This document shows, one piece after another, positions 1,078 to 31,344 of a DNA stretch of 32,000 nucleotides. The stretch comes from Flavobacteriaceae bacterium (GTDB taxonomy: Bacteria > Bacteroidota > Bacteroidia > Flavobacteriales > Flavobacteriaceae). The notes beneath the pieces were generated by a model. The model saw nothing but the letters and a program-made list of their open reading frames with translations, was not told the DNA's origin and made no database searches. Each line of letters opens with the position of its first letter. Position 1 is the stretch's first letter. The stretch is taken from assembly GCA_965224465.1 (NCBI GenBank), contig OZ245049.1, positions 4,680,001 through 4,712,000 of the forward strand, in the 5' to 3' direction. A program made the position numbers and the translations under genes.

Positions 1078-2961
1078 ATGTATAAGGAAAGTCTATTTGA
1101 ATTAATAAGAAAAGAAGAAGTTGTGATTTGGGCTGGTGCTGGATTATCACTTTACGCTGGTTTTCCCTCAGGTAAAAAGCTTGGCGAAATCCTTCTTGAT
1201 AACTTATCTATATCTGAAAAAGAGAATATAAATGTTAATCTTCCTCTACCTAATTTAGCCGAAGAATTCTATAGGATTAAAAACCATAATAGAAACTCAT
1301 TAATCAGGATATTAAATCAAACATTCATAGACAAAAAACCAATATCTACAGAATGTCATCAGAATATTGCACTCATTCCTCATTTTAAAACCATTATAAC
1401 TACTAATTATGATACGTTATTTGAAAATGCTTACCAGCAAAATGGACAATTAGTATACTCTGTAAAGCATATACCATATCTTGAAAATGGTAAAACTCAA
1501 ATATTCAAAGCTCATGGTGATTTGCAAGAACCTGATAGTATAATAATAACATACTCTGACTACAACAAATTCTTCAAAATTAATAGTGAGAATGGTGTTT
1601 ATTGGACTGTTATAAAAGAAAGACTTTCTACTAACAATGTTCTGTTTTTGGGATACAATATTGAAGATCCTAATGTTTCTATAATATTTGATAAAATTAC
1701 TGATGAGTTAGGTTCAAACAGAAAAGAATGTTTTCTTGTAGCTCCCGATTTACCTCCACAAAAAGTTAATGACCTAATTAGAAAAGGTATTAACTATATC
1801 AATTCTACTGCTGAAGTCCTAATTTCTGAATTGCTTCAAAATTTAAAAGAAAATACAATTGCGGATATTGAAAAAGGTAAAACAACAGCAGACACCTTTC
1901 GTCATTTTCTGTCAAATATTGATTTACTACCCGAATTAAAAGCAGAAAAGGAGGGCTTTAAGGTAAAGTCAATTAAAGGAAATAATGATAAAGTTGAGGG
2001 GAAAATGAACCTAACTTTTAAAAATGATCCAGTTTTTATAAAGGAACTTAATGATTATGTAACAGGAAAAAAAATAGGAACTTTTGAAATCTTTGGGGAT
2101 AAGTTAATAAACGCTGATTTTTGGTATGGTGGATTGAAATTTCCAGCCTCAGAAGGTATTGCTAAACTCGAATTTAAGAGTTGTCCAAAAGTTAATACAT
2201 CTATAGATATTCGCTTTGAGGACGGATTTGAGATTACTGATCTACCTATAAAGTTATATGGTTCTCCATCAATAATTGAAATACACGCTGAATTTAAAAA
2301 TGCTGATCTTATTGTCAATCTTAACTTGGAGACCTTACCTGAAACAAAGGTGAATTTTAACTATACGCATAAAGAAATTTGCAATAATGTAAGAGATGAA
2401 ATCGAACTATTTACCTTCTTAAAAAAATTAGGTGAAGGTGAAATATTTACTGTCTTCGCAAAATCGGGAGAAGTTTTCGAAAAATCTTTTCCAATTATGA
2501 AACCATTACAAGATGAAGGATATTTCTTTCTCAATTATTTTAACAACCTCAAAAAGATAGAACAATATTATAAGTTGCGTTTTTCCAATATAAGTATTCA
2601 TTCTGTGACAGATTCGGTAATTAAGAAAGTTGAATTATTAATTACAGTTATTAATGGTGAAAAAGTTGAATATGATTGGAATGATGAATTGACGCTGAAT
2701 TTATTTGATGGTTATGATGAAAATATTGAACAATTAAGGCAAGTTAATGAGATAAATGCTCCTGTAGTTGCGCATCATAAAGTTGAAGAGATAATAGATC
2801 TACATGGGCATGAAATAAATATAGGATATAAAAAGGTTGAATTTTTAGAGTCTTATGTGTCTAACTTGCAGGAAATAATTGATATGAAAGAAGATGTAGT
2901 TAAAATGAAAAGCAAGTGTGATAAAATTTTAATTTCTTACACTAAAGAAGATGATGAATGA
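1078..2961 (+). CDS. SIR2_2-family (defence-type sirtuin-like, putative NADase) protein with an unassigned ~350-aa C-terminal domain
   Basis: 627-aa ORF with an ATG start. N-terminal motifs VVIWAGAGLSLYAGFPSG, IITTNYDTLFE, FKAHGDL...IITYSDY and VLFLGYNIEDPNV are typical of the SIR2_2 (PF13289-like) fold. I recognise no motif in the C-terminal half. Confidence 0.8.
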   Translation: MYKESLFELIRKEEVVIWAGAGLSLYAGFPSGKKLGEILLDNLSISEKENINVNLPLPNLAEEFYRIKNHNRNSLIRILNQTFIDKKPISTECHQNIALIPHFKTIITTNYDTLFENAYQQNGQLVYSVKHIPYLENGKTQIFKAHGDLQEPDSIIITYSDYNKFFKINSENGVYWTVIKERLSTNNVLFLGYNIEDPNVSIIFDKITDELGSNRKECFLVAPDLPPQKVNDLIRKGINYINSTAEVLISELLQNLKENTIADIEKGKTTADTFRHFLSNIDLLPELKAEKEGFKVKSIKGNNDKVEGKMNLTFKNDPVFIKELNDYVTGKKIGTFEIFGDKLINADFWYGGLKFPASEGIAKLEFKSCPKVNTSIDIRFEDGFEITDLPIKLYGSPSIIEIHAEFKNADLIVNLNLETLPETKVNFNYTHKEICNNVRDEIELFTFLKKLGEGEIFTVFAKSGEVFEKSFPIMKPLQDEGYFFLNYFNNLKKIEQYYKLRFSNISIHSVTDSVIKKVELLITVINGEKVEYDWNDELTLNLFDGYDENIEQLRQVNEINAPVVAHHKVEEIIDLHGHEINIGYKKVEFLESYVSNLQEIIDMKEDVVKMKSKCDKILISYTKEDDE

Positions 2962-3171
2962 ATAACGCCCAGCCCATAACAAAAGTTAAATTTCATGGGC
3001 GCTGATGTGTCGTTTGAAAGTTTAGTGCAATTAATAAATACCAGCAAGCCAATTAAATGGGTTTGCTTAAAATTATAAATTTAATCGACTTGCTTATTTG
3101 GCGCATTGATAAGATTACTCTTTGAAATCGCCCACGACCTTTGCAAGACCGTTACCTGCAAGCTGAAAAAA

Positions 3172-3891
3172 ATGAAGATAAATACTGAAAACATAAAACA
3201 AATGATTTTTCTTCCTCAGGACTTTTTTAAATCTGAAAATTTACTTGAACGGCTAGATAACCAATTTCTTAATCTAAGGATAAATTTAAAAAATAAAAAT
3301 CGTTCAGAAGCAAAGAATGAACTTAATGCCTTTTATCAAATATGTTTGATTAGCGTTAAAATAGAAGAAATTCTTTTAAATGTTCATTTATTTATGTTTG
3401 ACTCACTTATAGAATATTCTAAGCAATTTGAAAGTATTGAAACTTTAAATAATATAATAAAGGCAATAGAAAGTCCTGAATTAAAAGGTAAATTATTTTC
3501 TAAATTACCAATTAAATCTAAAATTCTATATGCACAAGTTCTATTCTACCGTTATGAATTAGAAAACCGAAAGTGTGATGGTAAATTTTCTAAAGAAACA
3601 ACTGATTTTTTATTGAAGTCAAAATTTTATCTTCTTAAAGTTTACACTCAGCATATAGAATTAAAAATTACTCTTTCAGAAAATCAATTATCAACCTGTT
3701 TGTCATATTTATCTATTTGCTTATCTCGGCTATCTAGATGGTTTGAGCCTATTTATTATCTGGAATTAATTAATCAAGAAAACAATCCGAACATAGATTA
3801 TCTATACGCTATAAATTTAGATGCTATAAAAAAGAAAACTTGTTTGAATTATAACTTAAATTCAACTAATAAACGCAACTTTTCGATTTGA
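3172..3891 (+). CDS. hypothetical, predicted mostly helical protein; native 3' end replaced by IS30 sequence
   Basis: ORF in the track runs 3106-3891 (TTG start). The first ATG is at 3172 (MKINTENIK...). The last ~10 codons (NSTNKRNFSI*) lie inside the left inverted repeat of the IS. No recognisable domain. Confidence 0.5.
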   Translation: MKINTENIKQMIFLPQDFFKSENLLERLDNQFLNLRINLKNKNRSEAKNELNAFYQICLISVKIEEILLNVHLFMFDSLIEYSKQFESIETLNNIIKAIESPELKGKLFSKLPIKSKILYAQVLFYRYELENRKCDGKFSKETTDFLLKSKFYLLKVYTQHIELKITLSENQLSTCLSYLSICLSRLSRWFEPIYYLELINQENNPNIDYLYAINLDAIKKKTCLNYNLNSTNKRNFSI

Positions 3892-4975
3892 TTCTATGAT
3901 GGTTATATTTTCAAAACAGAAAAGTAGGAAAACCTACCTTTCTTGTCTTGATGGATATGTATCTTACGGTCTCAAATCTCGAAAAAAGAAGTTGTATGAA
4001 ACACATCACCCAAGCGCAAAGATACACAATTTGTTGCATGTTAAAACAAGGTTATAAACAGGTTGAGATAGCAGCTGCTATAGGAAAAGACAAGTCTGTT
4101 ATTAGCAAAGAGATTAAGCGTAATTCAGACAAAAGAAATGGAGTTTACAAGCATGAATTAGCCCAAAAAAAGTATGCTAAACGTCATAAAGAAAAGCCTA
4201 AAAGAAAACGCTTTACAGAAGATATTCAACAAGCAATAGAGTTGTTATTGCGAGACGATTATAGTCCTGAGCAAGTAGTTGGTGTCCTAAAAAAACAAGG
4301 TAAAGAAACGGTGTCTATTGAGCGTATATATCAGCATATTAGGGAAGACAAGAGGAATGATGGTGATTTACATACACACCTTCGCAGACAGGGAAGGAGA
4401 TATAGAAAACGTGGCTCATCAAAGGATTCTAGAGGGGTTATAAAGAATCGTATTAGTATAGAACAACGCCCTGAAGTTGTTGAACAAAGAAATCGATTTG
4501 GAGATTTAGAGGTCGATTTAATCATAGGTAAAAACCATAATCAAGCCATACTTACCGTAAATGATAGAGCTTCTGGAATGCTTAAAATGAAAAAAGTAAG
4601 CTCTAAAGAAGCAGTTGTTGTCACTAAAGCTATCAATGAAATATTAGAAGACTGGAAGCCTTATCTACATACTATAACAGCTGATAATGGAAAAGAATTT
4701 GCAGGCCATGAGCAGGTTGCAGAAAATTTATGTATTGATTACTTTTTTGCGCATCCATATCACTCTTGGGAAAGAGGATCTAACGAAAATTTAAATGGTT
4801 TGATTAGACAATATTTTGCCAAAGGAAGTGACTTTACAAACCTAACAGATCAAAGAATCAAAGAGGTAGAAACAAAATTAAATAACAGACCTAGGAAGAG
4901 ACATAAATATCAAAACCCTATATTTGTAATGGAACAATTATTATTTAACTAAAAGTTGCGTTTGTGACTTGAATT
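3859..4975 (+). mobile_element. IS30-family insertion sequence (~1.1 kb)
   Basis: Imperfect terminal inverted repeats: caactaataaacgcaactttt (3863-3883) versus the reverse complement of 4951-4971, caagtcacaaacgcaactttt (18/21). Both are flanked by AATT (3859-3862 and 4972-4975), which is either a target duplication or part of the IR. The element encloses a single IS30-type transposase ORF. Confidence 0.8.
3996..4952 (+). CDS. IS30-family DDE transposase
   Basis: N-terminal HTH (ITQAQRYTICCMLKQGYKQVEIAAAIGKDKSVISKEIKRN) and a DDE core (DLEVDLI..., TITADNGKEF, NENLNGLIRQYF) are typical of IS30 transposases. Alternative upstream starts at 3948 (TTG), 3951 and 3957 (ATG). Confidence 0.9.
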   Translation: MKHITQAQRYTICCMLKQGYKQVEIAAAIGKDKSVISKEIKRNSDKRNGVYKHELAQKKYAKRHKEKPKRKRFTEDIQQAIELLLRDDYSPEQVVGVLKKQGKETVSIERIYQHIREDKRNDGDLHTHLRRQGRRYRKRGSSKDSRGVIKNRISIEQRPEVVEQRNRFGDLEVDLIIGKNHNQAILTVNDRASGMLKMKKVSSKEAVVVTKAINEILEDWKPYLHTITADNGKEFAGHEQVAENLCIDYFFAHPYHSWERGSNENLNGLIRQYFAKGSDFTNLTDQRIKEVETKLNNRPRKRHKYQNPIFVMEQLLFN

Positions 4976-4989
4976 CAGCCAATATATAC

Positions 4990-5829
4990 ATGACAAAACC
5001 ACAAACCATACAAATATTCTTGCCCGATGGTTCTCCAACGAGTATACGTGAAGCTGAAATAACCACTAGATTGGTGAAAGCTATTTTATTTCCTAGAAAT
5101 AAGATGGAAGAAGTATCAAAACGTAAAATGGTGCACTATACAGGTGTCTACTTTTTGTTTGGTTATACAGAAGACGGAGCAAAGCCAATGGTATACATCG
5201 GAGAAGGAGAAGATTGCTTTACACGTATACAATCACATAATAGGAAAAAAGATTTTTGGACGCACTGTGTTATTATTGCTGCTAAAACAGATGAGTATAC
5301 CAAAACCGATGGTAAATACTTAGAGCATTATTGTCTGTCAAAAGCAAAAGAAATTGGGCGTTATTCTATTGATAACGATACGGGTTCTAAAAAGCCATCA
5401 ATATCTGAAAGTAGAGAGTATGATTTATTGGACAGTTTTGATACTGCTAAAATATTATTAGCAACATTGGGATTTCCTATTTTTGAAGAAAAGCGTAAAG
5501 TAAAAAGCAAAAAAGAACTTTTTTATTGTCAGAGTAAAAACGTTTCAGCTATTGGTGAATTAACAGATGATGGTTTTTTAGTGTACAAAGATGGAGAATC
5601 AACTGTAGAAGAAACCAAAGGAATGAATAAATGGATTGGGATTCTAAGAAAACGTTTAATAGATGAAGGGATCCTTAAGAAAGTGAACGAGGTGTATATA
5701 TTTCAACAAGATTACATTTTTAATTCGCCTAGTGCTGCTGCCGCTACAATTTTAGGGCGTTCTGCAAATGGTTGGATGTCTTGGAGAGATGAAAACGGGT
5801 TAACGTTAGATGAATTAAAGAGGAAATAG
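4990..5829 (+). CDS. GIY-YIG nuclease-family protein with C-terminal DUF4357-like domain
   Basis: GIY-YIG core GVYFLFG...MVYIGEGEDCFTRIQSH...FW. C-terminal FNSPSAAAATILGRSANGWMSWRDENGLTLDEL matches the DUF4357 signature from memory. ATG at 4990 (MTKPQTIQIFLPDG). The track ORF begins at 4969, inside or adjacent to the IS right end. Confidence 0.75.
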   Translation: MTKPQTIQIFLPDGSPTSIREAEITTRLVKAILFPRNKMEEVSKRKMVHYTGVYFLFGYTEDGAKPMVYIGEGEDCFTRIQSHNRKKDFWTHCVIIAAKTDEYTKTDGKYLEHYCLSKAKEIGRYSIDNDTGSKKPSISESREYDLLDSFDTAKILLATLGFPIFEEKRKVKSKKELFYCQSKNVSAIGELTDDGFLVYKDGESTVEETKGMNKWIGILRKRLIDEGILKKVNEVYIFQQDYIFNSPSAAAATILGRSANGWMSWRDENGLTLDELKRK

Positions 5830-5939
5830 CTTATATTTTAAATGAATCAATCTAAGTTTAGGATAGTATCTAATAATAAATTAAGTTTGCTTTGTCTAAA
5901 TCAAAAATTTCGCCATGTGCCAATCTATAATTTTTGACA

Positions 5940-8390
5940 ATGACAACAGTACAAATAAAAAATAATGCTCAAGAAGCGTTTAACAACAAGGATTACCCAA
6001 AAGCTTTTAATACTTTATGGAAGCTTGGTGTAGTTGGTTTTTTAGAGTTTTCTCAAAGTGAAGACCGTAGGACTAAAAAACAGAACTGGTTAGCTATTAA
6101 CTGGAAAAAGCAGAATACTAAGGGCTATCGCTATTTTTGGGATACCTTTATCTTGCAAGAAAATGTGTTTTCAGCTTGTTTTTCTTCCCAAAGACCGGTG
6201 GAGTTACTGCACAATTATTTTTCAAAAACAATTATTTTTAATGAGGCGTTTGAAACAAAATTAGCCAAAGAATACCCGCGTATTTTTGTGGAAGCTATTC
6301 GGAAAAATGAAGTTTTTTTCAGAGAGGATCGTATTGATTTTTTGCTAAAGGAAGGTTTGTTAGTGGATGAGTTTGTAATTCATCAAGATGTTTGGGAGTC
6401 TTTTCAAAGCGTAGAATTAGAACTCTGGAATCAAATTGAGTCCACAATAGTTATAATTGAAAAATACCCTTTAGAGCATATTTTGTTTTATACCGTAGGC
6501 TATTTTGAAACTAAAAATTACGAAGCTGCTTTTGATCTCCCAAATCAGACTTATTTAGCGGAGGGCTATAGTTTTTTTATAGACTTAATTTTAAGAAATC
6601 CGAAGGTAAAGCAACAAGGTTTTAGCACAGAACAATTTGAGAAGGGCTTTATTCTAACTATTTTTAAAAATAAAGATTTGGAACTTGAAAACGCCATATC
6701 TAAATGTCTTAATCTGATTATGAATAGACAAGGTCTTAATTCTAGTTTTTTTCAGACCTACTGTTTTAACGCTGATTTTGTTCCAAAATATATTTATGAA
6801 TCTTTATGTTTTTATGAGTCTCCAGAATCTCAATACCAGTGGAATGTTGATGAATTTCGCTATAAAGTAAACGAAGAAGTTTATAAGGAAAAGGGAACTC
6901 TTATCGTTGAAAGGCAATTGGAAAACGGAATGCTAATTCCAGGTATAGATGAAGCACATTATTTAAATAATAAGCGTTTAGCATGCAATTTACAAGCTGT
7001 TATTACAGTTTTGAACGATTTGAAATTATCACATTTTAATTCTAAAAACGTAAAAGTTACACCTGTAGCTGTTATAAAACCATTATATGTATATGCTTTT
7101 AATAGATTGGTGAGATATTACGAAGGGTTAAGAAACATACAACAGAGTCCGCCTAAATCCGTAAATAGTTGGAAAACGGCACTTTTGGAACTGGTACGTA
7201 CTCATAGAAAAGGCTACCAACTTCCTTTTGTCTATACATCAAAACAGGAGTATTTTGATTTGAATATAAAAGCAGACAAGGAATTTGACCTAGCAACGAG
7301 TAATCAAGTGTTAAATCAATTTGGATTAAATAGAGTGGGATTAAAACCATTTGATCGTTTTAATTTAAAGTACGCTGTGATAGATACTCCCTTTATATTA
7401 TTAGGAGATTATATATTTAGTCCTGTATTATTTTTTACCAGTTTTACAAGTCAAAACGTATATGTAAAATCCTTACTTCAAAACGATAACAGACGTACTG
7501 CAAGTGATATTGAAAACGTATTAGAAGATTTATTAGTAGCACATGGGCTTGAGATAAAGCACCCAAGTAACAAAGAAGTAAGTTTAATTAATGGGGATGC
7601 AGACCTAATTGTTTCTGATGATAATAATGTCTTATTAATTCAATTAAAACGAACAAGTTTAAGGTTAGATTATAAAGCGCAATATTATGAGCATATACAT
7701 ACAGATTTAAAAGCTGCGAATCAGTTGAATAATGCGGAACAGTATTTTACAACTGAAAACCCTGTATTTGACTTAAAAAACAGGAAAGTAACAAAATGGA
7801 TTGTTTCTAATTCCTTTGAAAAAGTAAATACAGAGATTAACAACTGCTTAAAAGTGAATTATTTAGATCTTGTCAATGTTTTAAGTAATACTGAAGGAAT
7901 GACCTTTAAAACGCTGCCTGATTTTATTTCTTTTTTTGAGGAGGATACCTACTTTAATTCCATTGCTAAAGAATTAATAGAAGGGAATACTATGTTTAAA
8001 GGATTGTTTTCAATATCAAACACAAAACATCGTAATTTCTCATGGAAACACTTTGATGAAGTAAAAGCAACTAAGTACCGTCATTACTATGATAAGGGGA
8101 TAGAATTGAGCGAAAAAGGATATCATAAAAATGCGATCAAGTCACTTAATGAGTGTTTAAAGTTAGAAAATGAAGATTTTGAAGTGCATGGTGTTATAGC
8201 AAATGTTTATGCAGATTTAAAGAATTATAAAAAGGCGTTTTTTCATTATGAAAAAGCCTTAGAAATTGTTCCTAATGAACCTCTAGTACTTAAAAATTAT
8301 GCATATACATTAGCAGAGTCTGGGGATCAAAAAGGGGTGGACTTAGCGAATCAAATGATTAATAATTACCCCTTTTTAAGTTTAATGTAA
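5940..8390 (+). CDS. large uncharacterised protein (816 aa) with a PD-(D/E)xK-like nuclease motif and C-terminal TPR repeats
   Basis: Long uninterrupted ORF. Motif ...DIENVLEDLL...GDADLIVSDDNNVLLIQLKR (nt ~7594-7653) has the spacing of a restriction-endonuclease-like D...(E/Q)xK core. The last ~100 aa (YDKGIELSEKGYHKNAIKSLNECLKLENEDFEVHGVIANVYADLKNYKKAFFHYEKALEIVPNEP...) are TPR-like. No family name recognised. Confidence 0.6.
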   Translation: MTTVQIKNNAQEAFNNKDYPKAFNTLWKLGVVGFLEFSQSEDRRTKKQNWLAINWKKQNTKGYRYFWDTFILQENVFSACFSSQRPVELLHNYFSKTIIFNEAFETKLAKEYPRIFVEAIRKNEVFFREDRIDFLLKEGLLVDEFVIHQDVWESFQSVELELWNQIESTIVIIEKYPLEHILFYTVGYFETKNYEAAFDLPNQTYLAEGYSFFIDLILRNPKVKQQGFSTEQFEKGFILTIFKNKDLELENAISKCLNLIMNRQGLNSSFFQTYCFNADFVPKYIYESLCFYESPESQYQWNVDEFRYKVNEEVYKEKGTLIVERQLENGMLIPGIDEAHYLNNKRLACNLQAVITVLNDLKLSHFNSKNVKVTPVAVIKPLYVYAFNRLVRYYEGLRNIQQSPPKSVNSWKTALLELVRTHRKGYQLPFVYTSKQEYFDLNIKADKEFDLATSNQVLNQFGLNRVGLKPFDRFNLKYAVIDTPFILLGDYIFSPVLFFTSFTSQNVYVKSLLQNDNRRTASDIENVLEDLLVAHGLEIKHPSNKEVSLINGDADLIVSDDNNVLLIQLKRTSLRLDYKAQYYEHIHTDLKAANQLNNAEQYFTTENPVFDLKNRKVTKWIVSNSFEKVNTEINNCLKVNYLDLVNVLSNTEGMTFKTLPDFISFFEEDTYFNSIAKELIEGNTMFKGLFSISNTKHRNFSWKHFDEVKATKYRHYYDKGIELSEKGYHKNAIKSLNECLKLENEDFEVHGVIANVYADLKNYKKAFFHYEKALEIVPNEPLVLKNYAYTLAESGDQKGVDLANQMINNYPFLSLM

Positions 8391-8464
8391 TAATAGGTTT
8401 GTAATAGTAAGTTTATAAGTATCGATTTAATTATCCGAGAGGATCAATTTTAAATTAATTCGAT

Positions 8465-9325
8465 ATGATAACAACTAAATTTATTCCAAGTGTAAATTTT
8501 CATTTATGGGAACCTTGTAATATGCGTTGTAAATTTTGCTTTGCCACGTTTCAAGATGTGAAGCAAACTATTTTACCCAAAGGGCATTTATCAAAAGAAA
8601 AAGCGATAAACGTAGTTAAAAAATTAGCGGACTATGGTTTTAAAAAGATAACTTTTGCTGGTGGAGAACCTATGCTTTGTCCTTGGTTGCCAATGCTAAT
8701 TAAAACAGCAAAGGAGTTAGGGATGACAACGATGCTTGTTACAAATGGGAGTCAACTAACAGAACGTTTTTTAATAGAAAATAAAACCTATTTAGATTGG
8801 ATTGCTATTAGTATAGATAGCCTTAATGAGGCTACTAATTTAAACATAGGTAGGGCTATTGTGGGGAAACGTGCATTAACGGAGGCGTTTTATAAAGAGC
8901 GTATTAAGGATATAAAAAAGCATGGCTACGGTTTAAAAGTAAACACCGTTGTAAATGCGTACAATCACTTAGATGATTTTAACGATTTCATTAATTTTGC
9001 GAAACCTAAAAGATGGAAAGTATTACAAGTGTTACCAATAGAGGGGCAGAACGATCATAAAATAGATGCTTTTAAAATTAGTGGTAAGCAGTTTAATACT
9101 TTTGTAGCAAAACATGCGGGTTTAAATAGTATGGTGCCAGAATCTAATAATGAAATGCAGGGTAGTTATGTTATGATTGATCCTGCAGGTAGATTTTTTG
9201 ATAACTCTAAAGGTAAACATCACTACAGTCATTCTATAGTGAATAATGCCGTAGAAAAAGTAATTAAACAAGTTGATTACAGTTTTAAAAAATTCATACA
9301 AAGAGTTGGTTTGTATAATTGGTAG
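8465..9325 (+). CDS. prokaryotic viperin (pVip), radical-SAM antiviral nucleotide dehydratase family
   Basis: The 286-aa protein aligns by eye with animal viperin along its whole length. CNMRCKFCF (CxxxCxxC, nt 8516-8539) vs CNYKCGFCF; ITFAGGEPML vs INFSGGEPFL; VTNGSQL; LDWIAISIDS vs LDILAISCDS; RWKVLQVLPIEGQN vs RWKVFQCLLIEGEN; VPESNNEMQGSYVMIDP vs VPESNQKMKDSYLILD. It also ends in a C-terminal W. Confidence 0.9.
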   Translation: MITTKFIPSVNFHLWEPCNMRCKFCFATFQDVKQTILPKGHLSKEKAINVVKKLADYGFKKITFAGGEPMLCPWLPMLIKTAKELGMTTMLVTNGSQLTERFLIENKTYLDWIAISIDSLNEATNLNIGRAIVGKRALTEAFYKERIKDIKKHGYGLKVNTVVNAYNHLDDFNDFINFAKPKRWKVLQVLPIEGQNDHKIDAFKISGKQFNTFVAKHAGLNSMVPESNNEMQGSYVMIDPAGRFFDNSKGKHHYSHSIVNNAVEKVIKQVDYSFKKFIQRVGLYNW

Positions 9326-9494
9326 CTGAATATGCTTTGGGTATTTGATTATATAGAGAATAGGACCTCTTTTTTAATTGTAGATAGAACAATATTATGT
9401 TTTAGATAGAAATAAGGGAGGGGGTATTTAGAAAGGATTGGCTGTGCCATCCTAGAAGATGGGGCTGGGTAAGCATGTGAAAACTAATTGCTAT

Positions 9495-9538
9495 CACGTT
9501 TCTATTTGTGGTCTCGGTTATGGCTCAGTTTACCACTT
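9495..9538 (+). repeat. copy 1 of a ~45-bp imperfect direct repeat flanking the DUF45 remnant
   Basis: CACGTTTCTATTTGTGGTCTCGGTTATGGCTCAGTTTACCACTT. In frame it reads M*KLIAITFLFVVSVMAQ, a signal-peptide-like 5' gene end with a stop at codon 2. Confidence 0.5.
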
Positions 9539-9560: not shown

Positions 9561-9780
9561 CCGATTAAATTAAGGAAATTAGAAAAACGTAGAGGAAACT
9601 GTACACCATCGAATACAATTATCATCAATATAGATGCGATTAAATTACCTTAGAGTCCTTGTCCACGAAATAGTTCATGCTGAAATCAGAAGCCATTCTA
9701 AGTCGTTTTGGCTAGCACTGTTTAAGTGTATTGCTAACGAGAAGGTCTTGGATGAAAAGATGAATGAAATTGCAATTTAA
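9561..9780 (+). pseudogene. remnant of a DUF45/YgjP-like (M48-type HExxH) metal-dependent hydrolase gene
   Basis: Reads IKLRKLEKRRGNCTPSNTIIINIDAIKLP*. After a +1 shift it continues VLVHEIVHAEIRSHSKSFWLALFKCIANEKVLDEKMNEIAI*. This matches the rWGSC...ln..L..lP...vvHELaHl...nHs..FW core of DUF45. The N-terminal two thirds are missing, and there is an internal stop plus a frameshift. Confidence 0.65.
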
Positions 9781-9920
9781 TTCACCCTATAAAACGCTGC
9801 TACAAATAAATAGGTTTTTTTTAGGAAAGCCCTAAGTGATGACGGGATCAATATCTAATTTAATGCTAATATCACGCGCTACTTTTAATGTAGGCTCATT
9901 TTTACCTGTCAGGTGGCTGC

Positions 9921-9965
9921 CACGTTTCTATTTGTGCCACCGATTATGGTCAACTTGTGCCACTT
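9921..9965 (+). repeat. copy 2 of the ~45-bp imperfect direct repeat
   Basis: CACGTTTCTATTTGTGCCACCGATTATGGTCAACTTGTGCCACTT, preceded by the palindrome GTGGCTGCCAC. The first 16 nt are identical to copy 1 and the rest is about 60 percent identical. Confidence 0.5.
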
Positions 9966-10054
9966 AGTTTTGGGTATAAATGCTAAATATTGAGCTGTCT
10001 TTACTATTGCGATTGAAGGGGAGGGCTTGAGCTTGAATAATTTTTTGCAAACAT

Positions 10055-11146
10055 GTAAAAGTAGTTTCACTGCGTGAGTTGTTGGTTTTTTAGTTTTAAA
10101 GTTGAGTTTTTGGAGGGATTTGCTTTGCTTTCCCTGAGTGGGGGTTTAGGTACGTATGTAAAACCAATCTCACTGCTTGAGTTGTTGGTTTTTTAGTTTT
10201 AAAGTTGAGTTTTTGGAGGGATTTGCTTCGCTTTCCCAGAGTGGGGGTTTAGGTATGTATGTAAAACCAATATTAATGCGTGCGCTTTTTGGTTGTTTGT
10301 TTTTTAGGTTTAAAGTTGAGTTTTGGGTAGGGGATTCGCTTTGCTTTCCCAGAGTGGGGGTTTAGGTATATGTAAAACCACTCTCACTGCGTGAGTTGGT
10401 TGTTTTTTAGTTTTAAAGTTGAGTTTTGGGAGGGATTTGCTTTGCTTTCCCTGAGTGGGGGTCTTTTGTAAGCGTATAAAACCAAGCTCACTGCGTGAGT
10501 TGTTGGTTTTTTTAGTTTTAAAGTTGATTTTTTGGAGGGATTCGCTTCGCTTTCCCAGAGTGGGGGTTTAGGTATATGTAAAACCAATCTCACTGCGTGA
10601 GTTGTTGGTTGTTGGTTTTTTAGTTTTAAAGTTGAGTTTTGGGAGGGGATTCGCTTTGCTTTCCCTGAGTGGGGGTTTAGGTATGTATTTAAAACCAATC
10701 TCACTGCTTGAGTTGTTGGTTTTTTAGTTTTAAAGTTGAGTTTTGGGAGGGATTGCTTCGCGTTCCCAGAGTGGGGGTCTAGGTATGTATGTAAAACCAA
10801 TATTACTGCGTGAGTTGTTGGTTTTTTTAGTTTTAAAGTTGAGTTTTGGGAGGGGGGATTCGCTTTGCTTTCCCTGAGTGGGGGTTTAGGTATGTATGTA
10901 AAACCAATCTCACTGCGTGAGTTGTTGGTTGTTGGTTTTTTAGTTTTAAAGTTGATTTTTTGGAGGGATTCGCTTTGCTTTCCCTGAGTGGGGGTTTAGG
11001 TAAATGTAAAACCAATCTCACTGCGTGAGTTGTTGGTTGTTGTTTTTTTAGGTTTAAAGTTGAGTTTTGGGAGGGATTGCTTCGCGTTCCCAGAAGGGAA
11101 TCCTTGGCAAGCATATAAAACCAAGCTCACTGCGTGCGCTTTTTGG
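10055..11146. repeat. tandem array of ~11 units of a 100-112 bp repeat, each containing a terminator-like hairpin and a G-rich box
   Basis: Unit starts (CACTGCGTGAG) at about 10068, 10171, 10271, 10385, 10489, 10591, 10702, 10803, 10911, 11019 and 11127. Consensus: CACTGCGTGAGTTGTTGGTTTTTTAGTTTTAAAGTTGAGTTTTGGGAGGGATTCGCTTTGCTTTCCCTGAGTGGGGGTTTAGGTATGTATGTAAAACCAATCT. The hairpin AAAACCAAtCTCACtgcGTGAGttgTTGGTTTTTT spans each unit junction. Confidence 0.9.
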
Positions 11147-11205
11147 TTTTTTTATATCCCAAAAGTTACGAAAGCTAGCTTTCGACGTTTTGGGATATAA
11201 AAAAA
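11147..11205. repeat. 59-bp near-perfect palindrome between the array and the tRNA terminator
   Basis: TTTTTTTATATCCCAAAAgttaCGAAAGCT|AGCTTTCGacgTTTTGGGATATAAAAAAA. 26 paired positions (18 + 8) with one small internal loop. Confidence 0.85.
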
Positions 11206-11227: not shown

Positions 11228-11234
11228 CCTTTTG

Positions 11235-11319
11235 CGGAGAAAGAGGGATTCGAACCCCCGGAGGTGTGACCCTCAACAGTTTTCAAGACTGCCGCATTCG
11301 ACCACTCTGCCATTTCTCC
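11235..11319 (-). tRNA. tRNA-Ser (anticodon UGA), long variable arm, no encoded CCA
   Basis: Reverse complement: GGAGAAATGGCAGAGTGGTCGAATGCGGCAGTCTTGAAAACTGTTGAGGGTCACACCTCCGGGGGTTCGAATCCCTCTTTCTCCG. Acceptor GGAGAAA/TTTCTCC, anticodon loop CT-TGA-AA, T-arm GGGGGTTCGAATCCCTC. Similar to E. coli tRNA-Ser(UGA). Confidence 0.9.
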
Positions 11320-11336
11320 AAAGCGTCTTGCGAGTG

Positions 11337-11409: not shown

Positions 11410-12138
11410 TTAAGATTTGAAATCTCTTAATTTTCCGTTTAAAATCAATGGAATATTCGCAGCTTCTCTATCAATAGCTCCGTTTTCGTCGCAGTCAAAA
11501 GATTTATAATTGATCGTAATCAATTTGATTTCCTTTTTTTCTAAGTAATCTTTTTTACGTTGTTTGTAAATGTCGATTTTTGCAGCTCTTGCGCTGTCTA
11601 AAAATCCTTCTTTTGCAATTTCTTCTTTAAAATAACTTTCGAATTCGATGGCTAATTTTAAGTCTTTGTAAAAAGCATCAATAGGCAATTTAGTTCTAGA
11701 TTTGCTGTTTTTATGCATGTCACCTAATAAGAAATCAAAAGTATGTTTACGTACCGCTGTTTGATTTAATATTTCATCACATAAGTTTAAAATAAAAGTC
11801 TCGTCACTGTTTTTAATAGTATTGAGTGCTTTTTGTTTGTTGGTGATGGTTGGTATTGCATTCGTAGGAGTGTATGTAGCTCCTACTTTTACGATGTACC
11901 AATAGATGGTTTTTTCGTTGCGTTCTGCATGTACACATGGAATTTGATCCAAGGTGTTGTTCTTGTCTAGCGTGCGTAAGAGTTTTCTTAGAGGCAATCC
12001 TTTTTTGTTGTCTTTGTTAAATATCCCACCTTTTATTAAAGCTGGCATTAAGTCTTTGGCTGGAATCCAGTTGGTGTCATGCTCCTCAAAGTACTTTGAA
12101 ATGATTTCGTTTATTTTGCTGATGCTATCGTTGTTCAT
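11410..12138 (-). CDS. hypothetical protein (242 aa from ATG; 253 aa from upstream TTG at 12171)
   Basis: Clean ORF between the two tRNA-Ser copies, same strand as both. No family recognised. The C-terminal segment LPIDAFYKDLKLAIEFESY faintly resembles a D...E.E/K restriction-endonuclease-fold core. Confidence 0.55.
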   Translation of the reverse strand: MNNDSISKINEIISKYFEEHDTNWIPAKDLMPALIKGGIFNKDNKKGLPLRKLLRTLDKNNTLDQIPCVHAERNEKTIYWYIVKVGATYTPTNAIPTITNKQKALNTIKNSDETFILNLCDEILNQTAVRKHTFDFLLGDMHKNSKSRTKLPIDAFYKDLKLAIEFESYFKEEIAKEGFLDSARAAKIDIYKQRKKDYLEKKEIKLITINYKSFDCDENGAIDREAANIPLILNGKLRDFKS

Positions 12139-12276: not shown

Positions 12277-12311
12277 AAAAACCTCACAATCAATAGATTA
12301 TGAGGTTTTTT
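12277..12311 (-). terminator. Rho-independent terminator downstream of tRNA-Ser copy 2
   Basis: Minus strand reads AAAAAACCTCAtaatctattgattgTGAGGTTTTTAT, directly after the tRNA 3' end. Confidence 0.55.
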
Positions 12312-12312
12312 G

Positions 12313-12397
12313 CGGAGAATGAGGGATTCGAACCCCCGGAGGTGTGACCCTCAACAGTTTTCAAGACTGCCGCATTCGACCACTCTGCCAATTCTCC
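12313..12397 (-). tRNA. tRNA-Ser (anticodon UGA), second copy
   Basis: Reverse complement: GGAGAATTGGCAGAGTGGTCGAATGCGGCAGTCTTGAAAACTGTTGAGGGTCACACCTCCGGGGGTTCGAATCCCTCATTCTCCG. Identical to copy 1 except for a compensatory swap of the seventh acceptor-stem base pair (A:U to U:A). Confidence 0.9.
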
Positions 12398-12428
12398 CGA
12401 GTGTCTTACAGTTTCCTGTTAGCGGTTG

Positions 12429-14528: not shown

Positions 14529-14633
14529 ACAAACTTAAGGGTCTGATAAGATAGCCTGTAAAAATGATTGTGTTAACATGTTTTTACACCCTGTTTATTT
14601 GTAATAGCTTTATAGACGGGTGATTAATAACGG

Positions 14634-14701
14634 CTACATTTTCAAGTGAAGCTTTAAAAATGGAATTATTTATATCGGTTGTTTTGGGGTGTACTTGGTA
14701 T
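14634..14701. repeat. degenerate copy of the dispersed palindromic (MITE/REP-like) element
   Basis: CTACATTTTCAAGTGAAGCTTTAAAAATGGAATTATTTATATCGGTTGTTTTGGGGTGTACTTGGTAT aligns with the copies at 14845 and 26000. Confidence 0.55.
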
Positions 14702-14764
14702 TGTACTTTGAATCTTCCACTTTTATAAAAATGTGAATATAAAAAATCAGAAAGACTGTATTTT

Positions 14765-14801
14765 AAAAAAGCCTAAGGTTATTAAATCTTAGGCTTTTTT
14801 T
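14765..14801. terminator. bidirectional Rho-independent terminator between convergent aroC and the aminotransferase gene
   Basis: AAAAAAGCCTAAGgttattaaatCTTAGGCTTTTTTT, with A/T runs on both sides. Confidence 0.75.
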
Positions 14802-14844
14802 GTAGGCGAATGTCAAGATGTCTTGCGTCTTGATTCCTGTTCTT

Positions 14845-14918
14845 ATACCAACTAAATTCCAAGTGACGGTTTAGAAAGGGAATTATTTATAGCGGTCATT
14901 TTGGATTGTAATTGGTAT
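14845..14918. repeat. dispersed palindromic (MITE/REP-like) element, compact copy
   Basis: ATACCAACTAAATTCCAAGTGACGGTTTAGAAAGGGAATTATTTATAGCGGTCATTTTGGATTGTAATTGGTAT. The terminal arms ATACCAA..TCCAA.TGAC are inverted copies of each other. Confidence 0.75.
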
Positions 14919-14974
14919 CATTGGTGTCATTGTTTTTAGAAATGATAAGAAGTCCGGATTCTTATGTTTCTTTT

Positions 14975-16141
14975 TTAATCACTTAAAATAATAAGTGCTT
15001 TTTTTACGCCATCACCTAGATTAAAGGAGTGACCACATTTTTTTAATGCTTTTTCTATTCCGGCAATAGTAGCAATAATATCCGATTGATTGACGATTCC
15101 CATGTGTCCCACTCTAAAATATTTGGTTTTATGACTCGGTAATAATCCACCAGCCAAAATAATATCAGATTCTTTTACGGCAGCTAAAAAATCACCTCTC
15201 GAAACATTTTTAGGATAATAAGTTGCGGTGAGTGTGTTTGCTGCAATATTATTAGAGACAGGTAAAATAGACAGTCCAATACATTGCATGGCTTCTCTAA
15301 AAGCGGTGGCTATTTGTTGATGTCTCGTAAAACGTTTTTCCATGCCTTCCTGTAGTATTAATTTCAAACTTTCCTCCAATGCCATGATTAAATTTACAGG
15401 AGGTGTTCCAAAATAAGAAGGACTTTCATTTTCGTAAGCTTTCATAATAGGAAGCCAATTGTTAAAATCTCCATAATAATTTAAAACAGGGGTTTTTCGT
15501 GTTTTAAATACCTGCATTGCCTTTTCTGAAATCATTAACAAAGCAAGTCCTGGAGGTACGCCTATTGCTTTTTGGGAAGCGGTGAGTACTACGTCTATAT
15601 GCCATTCGTCTTGGTGGATACTTTCTCCTGCTAGGGAGCAAACACCATCTAAAATAGTCAATACATTGTATTTTTTACCAAGTGCTCCAATGGGTTTTGG
15701 GGCTACAATAATTCCTGTTGAGGTATCAACATGTGTAAAAGTTAGGATTTTAAAATCTCCATTTTGTAAGGTTTTTTCGATGGTTTCAAGAGGGACAGTT
15801 TCTCCGAAACCCGCAGTCAAAACTGTGACATCAGCACCGTATCGTTCTAAAATAGTCGCGTATCGTTCTCCAAAATAGCCAGTAGAAATAACCAATGCTT
15901 TATCCCCTGGGTTTACCAAATTACAGGCAGCCATATCCATGGCGAGTGTTCCAGAGCCAGCCAAAATAAAAGGCTGACCTTTTGGGCTGAGCCAAACTTC
16001 TCGCATGTATTTTAAGGAGTTACTAAACGATTTTATAAAATTAGGTGCTACATGACTGGTTGTAGGAGCGCCTAGAATACGCAATACGGATGGTTCGAAT
16101 TCAATAGGGCCAGGGATCATTAATAATTTTCTGTTTTTCAT
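14975..16141 (-). CDS. class-V PLP-dependent aminotransferase (serine-pyruvate/alanine-glyoxylate aminotransferase family)
   Basis: 388 aa. LLMIPGPIEFEP N-terminus, GSGTLAMD, FTHVDTSTG, and the PLP-lysine motif TASQKAIGVPPGLA. Confidence 0.85.
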   Translation of the reverse strand: MKNRKLLMIPGPIEFEPSVLRILGAPTTSHVAPNFIKSFSNSLKYMREVWLSPKGQPFILAGSGTLAMDMAACNLVNPGDKALVISTGYFGERYATILERYGADVTVLTAGFGETVPLETIEKTLQNGDFKILTFTHVDTSTGIIVAPKPIGALGKKYNVLTILDGVCSLAGESIHQDEWHIDVVLTASQKAIGVPPGLALLMISEKAMQVFKTRKTPVLNYYGDFNNWLPIMKAYENESPSYFGTPPVNLIMALEESLKLILQEGMEKRFTRHQQIATAFREAMQCIGLSILPVSNNIAANTLTATYYPKNVSRGDFLAAVKESDIILAGGLLPSHKTKYFRVGHMGIVNQSDIIATIAGIEKALKKCGHSFNLGDGVKKALIILSD

Positions 16142-23535: not shown

Positions 23536-24020
23536 AAAGTATGTTTTGAATTATTTTCACAAAACTAATGATTTTGTTGATGATAATATAATGTATCTAC
23601 GAAAACGTTTTATTTAATAGGGGCAATTAAAAAAAGTGATAGTAAATGTGTAAATATAGTATGGTTTTTATAGGTATTATTGGGATTGAGCTTGTTTACA
23701 GCCTTTAAATTGTGAAATTGATTCTTTTTGTTAATTTTTTACGGATATAGTAAAAATTGTTATGGCTGCTATAAAAAGGCTGTTTTAGTGCCTTTTTGTG
23801 ATGGCGCGCTTGTTTTTTGTTTAGGTTTTAAGGTGTAAAAGGGGGAAATGGTTTTGATTTCAGTTGTTTTTGTATGGAATGTGTTTTTTGTTATTGACGG
23901 GGTGTTTCTATGTGAAAACATCAATGATTGACTGGTTTTGTTGTTTTAATCTTTTGTTTTTGTTGGTTTTATGTTTGAATATTCATGCTAAATTGATATA
24001 TTTATGCAAAATTACTATAT

Positions 24021-26000: not shown

Positions 26001-26108
26001 TACCAACTTACATTTCCAAGTGACGGTTTAGAAATAGAATTATTTTTTAACAACGCTAGAAGGTATAATAAACTATTTATATCTGTCATTTTGGATTGTA
26101 ATTGGTAT
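26000..26108. repeat. dispersed palindromic (MITE/REP-like) element, long copy, between the symporter small- and large-subunit genes
   Basis: ATACCAACTTACATTTCCAAGTGACGGTTTAGAAATAGAATT...TTATATCTGTCATTTTGGATTGTAATTGGTAT. It starts on the last base of the DUF4212 TAA stop codon. Confidence 0.8.
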
Positions 26109-26243
26109 CGCCTAATTATTATGAACTAACAAATTTTTTACTATTTAGGAACAAGGTGCATACGTCTAAGTGTTTGGGAGTGTGTAATGCTGTTATAGCA
26201 TGGATTAACTAATTAACTATTAACTAACAAAACTTTTTAAATC

Positions 26244-30936: not shown

Positions 30937-31305
30937 ATGAAAAAGATATTAATTGTAGATGATGAACCTAATATTGTGATGTCACTCGAATACTTATTTA
31001 AAAAGGAAGGGTTCGAAGTGTTTATAGCAAGAGATGGAGAGGAAGCATTAGCAATCCTAGCTCAAGACATACCAGATCTTGTGCTGTTGGATGTGATGAT
31101 GCCTAAAGTAGATGGCTATCAGGTGATAAAATACCTAAAGGCATCTGAAAAATTAAAGAATATAAAAGTGATTTTTTTATCCGCTAAAAGCAAAGCAACG
31201 GACATAGAAAAAGGACTGAGCCTAGGGGCAGATAAATATATAGCCAAACCATTTTCTACAAAGAAACTGGTAAGTGAAGTCAAAAAATTAGTACTTACAA
31301 AGTAA
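30937..31305 (+). CDS. single-domain (receiver-only, CheY-like) response regulator
   Basis: 122 aa. ILIVDDEPNI, the phospho-acceptor context LVLLDVMMPKVDG, LSAKS and KPF. There is no output domain. Its ATG follows the kinase stop directly. Confidence 0.9.
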   Translation: MKKILIVDDEPNIVMSLEYLFKKEGFEVFIARDGEEALAILAQDIPDLVLLDVMMPKVDGYQVIKYLKASEKLKNIKVIFLSAKSKATDIEKGLSLGADKYIAKPFSTKKLVSEVKKLVLTK

Positions 31306-31344
31306 TTCCATTTCTAAACCATCACTTGGAAATGTATTTGGTAT
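31305..31344. repeat. half-copy (inverted orientation) of the dispersed palindromic element
   Basis: The reverse complement ATACCAAATACATTTCCAAGTGATGGTTTAGAAATGGAAT equals the left arm of the 26000 copy. It starts on the last base of the response-regulator TAA. Confidence 0.7.

Follow-up and report, generated by a model that had tools for sequence, protein, structure and literature searches.

Introduction

Intergenic minisatellites in bacteria are exemplified by the mycobacterial interspersed repetitive unit-variable-number tandem repeats (MIRU-VNTR), and MIRUs are dispersed over many loci of the genome. At tRNA genes into which genomic islands have inserted, partial duplicates of the tRNA 3′ end (att remnants) flank the island, and partial fragments made of a tRNA 3′ end and its terminator are commonly left at tRNA-associated island hotspots. 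A third kind of array, NsiR1 of heterocystous cyanobacteria, consists of tandem small RNA (sRNA) genes; its transcription is demonstrated and it is conserved clade-wide beside hetF (PMC4030482; Ionescu et al. 2010, cited there). Here we describe a tandem array at positions 10053-11152 of a 32,000-nucleotide stretch of a Flavobacteriaceae genome (assembly GCA_965224465.1, contig OZ245049.1, positions 4,680,001 to 4,712,000), which we call the window. Annotation of the flanking genes confirmed that the array lies between defence genes and a tRNA-Ser gene, where a sequence-only reading of this DNA had placed it. Its only other occurrence is in L001 (ENA ERZ25073217), an independent metagenome assembly of a sister strain. 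We hold with moderate confidence that the array, located at the edge of a defence-island hotspot, is a lineage-specific minisatellite of the VNTR type with a unit that comes from the 3′ flank of tRNA-Ser, and that termination on the plus strand is the sole activity to be predicted for it.

As in other bacterial VNTRs, imperfect noncoding units of the ~50- to 130-bp class stand head to tail in an intergenic spacer, copy number differs between very close strains, and no dedicated machinery is encoded nearby. Unlike MIRUs, the unit occupies one locus in one lineage, and it carries a terminator-type hairpin and a putatively tRNA-derived block. With NsiR1 the array has in common about a dozen direct repeats, a potential promoter and terminator for each, and a predicted product of <100 nt. 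It differs from NsiR1 in phylum and promoter type, in being conserved only as far as a 99%-identical strain, in having no defined fold, and in being known from sequence alone.

Anatomy and variation of the array

Tandem Repeats Finder (TRF) reported this as the single large array, with a period of 103, 10.4 copies, 82% matches and a score of 1357. We cut the units at each hairpin start, aligned them, and built a profile hidden Markov model from them. The profile recovered ten full units, with E values of 1e-25 to 1e-31, and an eleventh copy that is a hairpin alone, so that the eleven-unit array of the sequence-only reading is real but has ten full units and a remnant. The full units start at 10056, 10159, 10262, 10373, 10477, 10579, 10690, 10792, 10899 and 11007 (u1 to u10) and measure 102-111 bp, a narrower range than the 100-114 bp claimed before. 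The elements around and within the array are as follows.

9908-9974, plus strand: left-boundary motif GTCAGGTGGCTGCCACG...TTGTGCCAC...TTGTGCCACTTAGTTTTGGG, identical in L001
9975-10055, plus strand: non-unit filler (“unit 0”) of ~80 bp; by alignment, L001 has a normal G-box here
10056-11115, plus strand: ten full ~103-bp units (TRF, unit alignment and profile)
11116-11153, plus strand: eleventh unit, a hairpin-only remnant (11111-11152 by the profile), kept in L001
11143-11209, no strand: 67-nt palindrome with perfect 22-nt arms, identical in L001
11201-11232, minus strand: tRNA-Ser intrinsic terminator, -15.6 kcal/mol
11234-11319, minus strand: tRNA-Ser(TGA), array-proximal copy, with a T-arm containing CGAATCCCTC, common to the G-box
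12312-12397, minus strand: second tRNA-Ser(TGA), beside TauE, the sole copy in distant relatives

Alignment of the units bore out the anatomy that had been read from the sequence. Each unit begins with a hairpin, AAAACCAAtCTCACtgcGTGAGttGTTGGTTTT, with a tract of six or seven T residues (T6-7), followed by TAGTTTTAAAGTTGAG and then by a G-rich box, the G-box (GGGAGGGATTCGCTTTGCTTTCCCTGAGTGGGGG). The full pattern of the G-box is GGGAGGGATT(C/T)GCTT(T/C)GC(T/G)TTCCC(T/A)GAGTGGGGGTTTAGG, and the unit-core sequences are TCCCWGAGTGGGGGT and TTTAAAGTTGAGTTTTGGGAGGGAT. The GTTGTTGG expansions noticed earlier occur in two units, u6 and u9, and in variant form in u3 and u10. Two subtypes, defined by CTT[T/C]GC together with CCC[T/A]GAG, do exist: u1, u4, u6, u8 and u9 are T/T and u2, u5, u7 and u10 are C/A. 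Their proposed alternation is just partial, and u3 is a hybrid. The linked substitutions do not base pair with each other on either strand, and therefore mark ancestry rather than structure.

Pairwise identity between units ranges from 75 to 96% (a difference of 4-25%). The closest pairs are u2-u7 (96%), u6-u9 (94%) and u2-u5 (93%), and u7-u10 reach just 83%. Higher-order duplication is a real feature of the array, and the period suggested for it, ~210 bp, found no support: the higher-order periods given by TRF are 317 and 428 bp, that is, three and four units. The higher-order structure is a mosaic, with no simple ~210-bp dimer.

The entire period repeats and unique spacers are absent, and there are no cas genes nearby. 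We therefore rejected a CRISPR array, in agreement with the earlier reading. That reading had also seen no conserved reading frame, and indeed there is none: unit lengths are not divisible by 3, and the open reading frames (ORFs) are short and out of phase. We searched 5.8 billion predicted proteins with the longest spurious ORF of the array, as arrays can be mis-called as genes, and found nothing; coding potential was rejected. What is left is a series of head-to-tail direct repeats of a noncoding unit within the 10-150 bp that define minisatellites and VNTRs.

Copy number in the sister strain

From the last unit rightwards, L001 and the window are 99.0% identical across 7.6 kb, and they have in common the left motif, the terminal unit, the palindrome and the tRNA-Ser gene. 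At the same place L001 has ~2 units and the window 10.5. A copy-number difference between two near-identical strains is thus directly shown, by one comparison genome in which assembly collapse is conceivable. Unequal recombination best explains the 10.5-versus-2 difference, and contraction in L001 with a rearrangement of the left edge most likely lies behind it. Units differ by 4-25% from each other but the strains by ~1% in the flanks, so the array predates the strain split; higher divergence between units than between strains is as expected of an old array remodelled by unequal exchange. Among the roles that the sequence-only reading had offered, that of a recombination hot spot fits the copy-number difference.

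The same comparison bears on whether the array is an artefact of assembly or sequencing. Tandem repeats are prone to mis-assembly, and some of the differences between units are differences in homopolymer length. Many others are structured substitutions, however, and the same unit types and junctions appear in the independent metagenome assembly, and we give an artefact hardly any credence.

The likeness of the two strains ends at the left-boundary motif. Strain-variable island DNA starts immediately left of 9908, and leftwards of that position we found no similarity between the window and L001. The island of L001 holds a type I restriction enzyme, DUF6088 and a transposase-like fragment; its counterpart in the window is a Thoeris-like/viperin island. 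The defence island (1078-9325) is thus wholly replaced by a type I restriction-modification (R-M)/DUF6088 island in a 99%-identical strain. The boundary motif has three TG(C/T)GCCAC-type repeats and resembles a mobile-element end or recombination site. A perfect -7 box of the Bacteroidota type, TAGTTTTG (9965-9972), forms its end. A degenerate second copy of the motif lies 426 bp upstream at 9490-9523, with the C-terminal fragment of a YgjP-like peptidase (9634-9780) between the two copies; the second copy points to repeated turnover at the site. This fragment is part of ~600 bp of debris between the viperin gene pVip and the array side.

Similarity to the tRNA-Ser 3′ flank

The sequence-only reading had noted that hairpin, spacer and G-box follow each other in the order of the adjacent tRNA-Ser terminator and T-arm, and this resemblance survived proper alignment. 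A AAAACCAA/TTGGTTTT stem is common to the tRNA-Ser terminator and the array hairpins. In an ungapped comparison, two 10-mers of the unit recur exactly in the tRNA flank, and their order is kept. The one that comes first, GAGGGATTCG, is complementary to the T-arm block CGAATCCCTC (p~0.005); the other is the 3′ hairpin arm (p~0.009). When gaps are allowed, the unit, read on the sense strand of the tRNA, is collinear with T-arm, spacer and terminator, with a score of 40.5 as against 23.4 ± 4.1 for shuffles (p~0.001); measured against real segments of the window, p is ~0.008. Outside the array, the AAACCAA...TTGGTTT stem occurs nowhere but in the tRNA-Ser terminator, with none in ~110 kb of relatives' loci, and so is not a generic form of terminator.

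These similarities suggest an origin of the unit in a partial duplication of the tRNA-Ser 3′ end, with the T-arm, and of the terminator, followed by amplification in tandem. Unequal recombination or replication slippage would have amplified and reshuffled the unit, at the edge of a tRNA-adjacent hotspot that exchanges defence islands.

A related explanation is that the G-boxes are fossil or pseudo att sites, remnants of the tRNA-Ser 3′ end left by or serving island recombinases, so that the array would be a by-product of integration or a landing pad for it. The G-box does contain the T-arm block CGAATCCCTC, collinear with spacer and terminator; the array directly follows the 3′ end of a tRNA gene, where strain-variable defence islands border on it; and the second boundary-motif remnant and the YgjP-like fragment speak for repeated turnover. 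As with att remnants, a fragment that matches the T-arm lies beyond the tRNA 3′ end, towards the island. Unlike them, it matches without gaps over 10 nt only, with the acceptor-stem part missing, and it is amplified in tandem together with a terminator. The boundary between conserved and variable DNA, 9908, is left of the whole array and not within a G-box. No tyrosine or serine recombinase is encoded in the adjoining island, over 9.9 kb in the window or 8.3 kb in L001; a block at the island boundary with a cognate integrase is therefore not what the examined sequence holds. The adjoining islands carry only IS30-like and HTH/transposase-like fragments. Similarity extends over whole units, the spacer included, and together with the higher-order pattern this favours tandem duplication over serial integration. 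We regard att sites as an improbable explanation, and retain that of a minisatellite amplified from the tRNA flank.

The palindrome joins the array to the tRNA gene: through its arms, the last array hairpin (at its T-tract) is connected with the tRNA terminator (at its A-tract). Last array hairpin, palindrome and tRNA-Ser terminator together form one long symmetric structure of three hairpins.

The tRNA-Ser(TGA) gene is itself duplicated. The two copies (11230-11329 and 12308-12407) are 1078 bp apart, 95% identical, and have their own terminator each. What distinguishes them is a compensatory exchange in the acceptor stem, where A-T is swapped to T-A: GGAGAAAG.../...CATTTCTCC versus GGAGAATG.../...CAATTCTCC.

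Hairpins and predicted termination

Stable hairpins are formed by 9 of the 11 copies, with folding energies of -9.5 to -12.9 kcal/mol and z scores of -2.6 to -4.0; those of u1 and u3 have decayed (z~0). In u6, u9 and u10, the GTTGTTGG expansion puts the stem 7-8 nt from the T-tract. The eleventh hairpin, at -10.1 kcal/mol, is the terminal terminator-like element on the plus strand. On the plus strand every stem runs into T6-7, and on the minus strand into TTTT only, which makes plus the better orientation for a terminator. A consensus scan found 13 terminator-like matches in the region, as against 3.0 expected, and a stable, G+C-containing stem-loop directly followed by a U-tract, the hallmark of an intrinsic terminator, is present in about 6 of the 11 units.

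The units thus resemble intrinsic terminators in having a stem-loop of -9.5 to -13 kcal/mol with T6-7 on the plus strand and an upstream A-tract, and in lying between convergent transcription units. They differ in that 10-11 copies are far beyond need, two stems have decayed and three are displaced from the T-tract. If the hairpins act as predicted, read-through from the island would be halted on the plus strand before it could run antisense into tRNA-Ser. The whole array might do this, or just its final one or two units; any copies in excess of the one or two that the sister strain keeps are probably dispensable. An insulator had been among the roles offered for the array, and terminator-like hairpins on the plus strand fit it.

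Outside the hairpins we found little structure. On neither strand is the fold of the G-box better than that of dinucleotide shuffles (z of -1.1 to +0.8), and the ensembles of the box are diffuse. RNAalifold, applied to the aligned units as a check for covariation, gave a weak consensus (-7.3 and -4.5 kcal/mol for the two strands) with essentially no compensatory pairs among 12 similar copies, a sample of low power. Within that power, the G-box shows no fold above chance and the units none of the covariation of a structured RNA. The proposal of small structured RNAs thus found no structural or covariation support, and that from promoters, considered below, is suggestive.

Other kinds of element were considered for the repeats and rejected. 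A type III toxin-antitoxin system (ToxI-like) would need a toxin, and on the plus strand downstream there is the palindrome, then tRNA-Ser in opposite orientation, and no ORF; the units are ~103 bp long with a terminator-like hairpin in each. For a G-quadruplex, by inspection, there are too few G-runs, ~22 nt apart. Integron attC sites lack the inverse-core partner on the same strand, and a CsrA sponge or Shine-Dalgarno (SD) mimic would be pure speculation.

Promoter-like boxes and a possible small-RNA array

The consensus for flavobacterial sigma-A promoters is TTG-N~19-TAnnTTTG, and its box occupies -12 to -5 (PMC9723704). In the window, perfect matches to it mark the promoters of tRNA-Ser, chorismate synthase and the first island gene; the array-proximal tRNA-Ser has TTG-N18-TATATTTG at 11365-11337. 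Allowing at most one mismatch in the -7 box at correct spacing, we found 15 promoter-like matches in the array on the plus strand and 0 on the minus strand.

These boxes head the observations that weigh against a minisatellite whose one activity is termination. Near-consensus promoters, TTG-N18-20-GAGTTTTG or TAAAGTTG, are found in 9 of the 10 units, only on the plus strand, and are so placed that a transcript would begin at the G-box and end at the next hairpin. A perfect TAGTTTTG stands at the left boundary in both strains. The first G-box of L001 comes directly after it, and in the window it is followed by non-unit filler rather than a G-box. This layout of promoters and terminators is suggestively that to be expected of independent small transcription units. 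The G-box also equals the hairpin in its conservation among units; this is not a prediction of pure neutrality, and may reflect recent homogenisation. Finally, the low copy number of L001 could in principle be an assembly collapse, and with two genomes only, any test for selection is powerless.

We therefore weighed a reading of the array as tandem sRNA genes like NsiR1, each with its own sigma-A promoter of the form TTG-N19-(G/T)AGTTTTG. Each unit would yield a plus-strand RNA of ~85-95 nt with its start at the G-box, an exposed G-rich segment (GAGUGGGGGU) and its end at the hairpin and U-tract, and copy number would set dosage. The strand bias of the promoter-like matches, 15 to 0, speaks for this, as does the correct marking of the tRNA-Ser and chorismate synthase promoters by the same consensus. 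The position of the sigma-A box at -12 to -5 (PMC9723704) puts the predicted start sites at the edge of the G-box. Most units have terminator-like hairpins, the first G-box of L001 directly follows a perfect TAGTTTTG, and NsiR1, with 12 tandem copies that each have their own promoter, is a precedent (PMC4030482).

Against these points stands a background of ~1 promoter-like match per kb per strand and a plus strand that is strongly T/G-rich. Since the units are copies of one another, the promoter signal amounts to roughly one independent observation. The better-placed GAGTTTTG box is missing from several units (u1, u5 and u9), and the body of the RNA has no stable or conserved fold. NsiR1 is conserved across all heterocystous cyanobacteria, whereas conservation of this array across related genomes ends at the 99%-identical strain: it is restricted to one lineage, and the sister strain has ~2 units only. 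On balance we consider tandem sRNA genes unlikely, though they are the main rival explanation. Somewhat less likely still is that we are looking at a recently born sRNA gene family, in which a tRNA-Ser fragment of T-arm and terminator gained a sigma-A promoter on the opposite strand and grew into ~10 transcription units for G-rich RNAs of ~90 nt, with copy number as dosage and possibly with ties to the defence hotspot.

Distribution of the unit

The unit profile detected no copy outside 10051-11152 in the 32-kb window, nor at the fetched loci except in L001. In particular, a solitary degenerate relative proposed at 23773-23860 went undetected even at E<=10. Repetition of the unit at several loci, as seen with MIRUs, was thus not found in the window or at the fetched loci. 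Rfam gave no match in 10050-11150, either at the gathering threshold or at E<=10.

Two different degenerate patterns, run against 185,579 species-representative genomes (GTDB), gave no true match: the first had 0 matches, and the second 13 single ones, all chance. One of these 13, in a Flavobacteriales metagenome-assembled genome (MAG), lies within a coding region. Pattern scans of the JGI metagenomes and IMG/VR returned single chance matches only. All of these, in genomes, JGI metagenomes and IMG/VR alike, fit the unit profile only across the words that had been searched for. The collections of phages and plasmids held nothing similar to the array by blastn, and an exact-sequence look-up of two flanking proteins of the window gave no record.

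Relatives were also sought by synteny, through homologues of TauE and of a 242-aa ORF that lies between the two tRNA-Ser genes. These walks led to one array-bearing strain (L001), two contigs broken at the tRNA-Ser duplication, and distant relatives without an array. At the tRNA-Ser/TauE locus of the distant relatives there is a single tRNA-Ser and no array; in other genera, homologues of the 242-aa ORF occur in other contexts, with no array alongside. One of the broken contigs, from a ~87% relative (L002; GCA_016764435.1, JAESRX010000064.1), ends inside the duplicated tRNA-Ser (L002 1-70). The tRNA-Ser duplication breaks short-read assemblies and so probably hides the locus in other MAGs. The case that the sequence-only reading had named as a refutation, a generic satellite scattered at random loci, does not apply: the unit belongs to a single locus and a single lineage. 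The unit is a new and very rare sequence family, of a kind that falls within known bacterial repeats.

These searches also bear on a reading of the array as protein-binding iterons, a centromere-like or replication-origin-like site of a mobile element. The only feature that recalls such a site is the regular spacing of inverted repeats, by which the array loosely resembles sopC. Units are variably spaced (102-111 bp), however, with degeneracy in several of the inverted repeats; the neighbourhood lacks rep, par and relaxase genes, the array is part of the conserved chromosomal flank rather than of the variable island, and there is no plasmid or phage match. Iterons had been suggested before, and with no support for them we judge them very improbable.

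The wider locus

The defence island left of the boundary comprises the following genes.

1078-2961, plus strand: ThsA-like SIR2
3106-3891: ORF without assigned function
4969-5829, plus strand: PDC-S14/DUF4357
5934-8390, plus strand: viperin-associated TPR protein
8465-9325, plus strand: prokaryotic viperin, pVip

An IS30-like insertion sequence at 3859-4975, with a transposase at 3948-4952 and 25-nt inverted repeats, lies inside the island. Upstream of the island is a Flavo-1 RNA (RF01705, 59.8 bits) at 493-567 on the minus strand.

Rightwards of the array-proximal tRNA-Ser come the 242-aa ORF, the second tRNA-Ser, TauE and chorismate synthase. The window has ~34% G+C, and the best matches of TauE are in MAGs, with Lutibacter at ~65%; together with the Flavo-1 RNA, these features assign the window to an uncultured lineage of Flavobacteriaceae. 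The 242-aa ORF (11410-12138, minus strand) has no match in Pfam, NCBIfam or PADLOC. Its homologues, 45-54% identical, are spread across Flavobacteriaceae (Lutibacter, Aquimarina, Bizionia), and in the fetched relatives they are mostly beside the Era GTPase, in two cases near tRNA-Met.

Two other sets of repeats came to our attention. Dispersed intergenic repeats of ~60-95 nt, 82-94% identical, occur at 14640-14702, 14857-14919, 26014-26109 and, inverted, 31295-31336; they form one family, which might be REP/MITE-like or serve as a regulatory motif. In a ~82-87% relative (L003), an unrelated tandem array of 130 bp x 5.9 (~6), with ACCAGTC and GTTGTTGG micro-repeats, lies at 2454-3238 between the chorismate synthase and aminotransferase genes, and is missing from the corresponding spacer of the window (14529-14975). 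We rejected kinship between the two arrays, as they share just a low-complexity (GTTGTTGG)n tract and a non-significant 12-mer. The absence of the L003 array from the window indicates that such minisatellites come and go in the lineage.

Implications

If the units were transcribed on their own, the array would represent de novo birth of sRNA genes from a tRNA flank, of interest to RNA biologists, and to our knowledge the first tandem array of sRNA genes in Bacteroidota. Arrays of this kind mimic features of sRNAs or CRISPR and break short-read assemblies, which calls for caution among annotators. If it is indeed a minisatellite at a hotspot, as we favour, the locus would be a clean example of a tRNA 3′ flank that was partially duplicated and amplified in tandem. 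Its significance would then be modest, and it would make a good VNTR marker for typing strains of this Flavobacteriaceae lineage.

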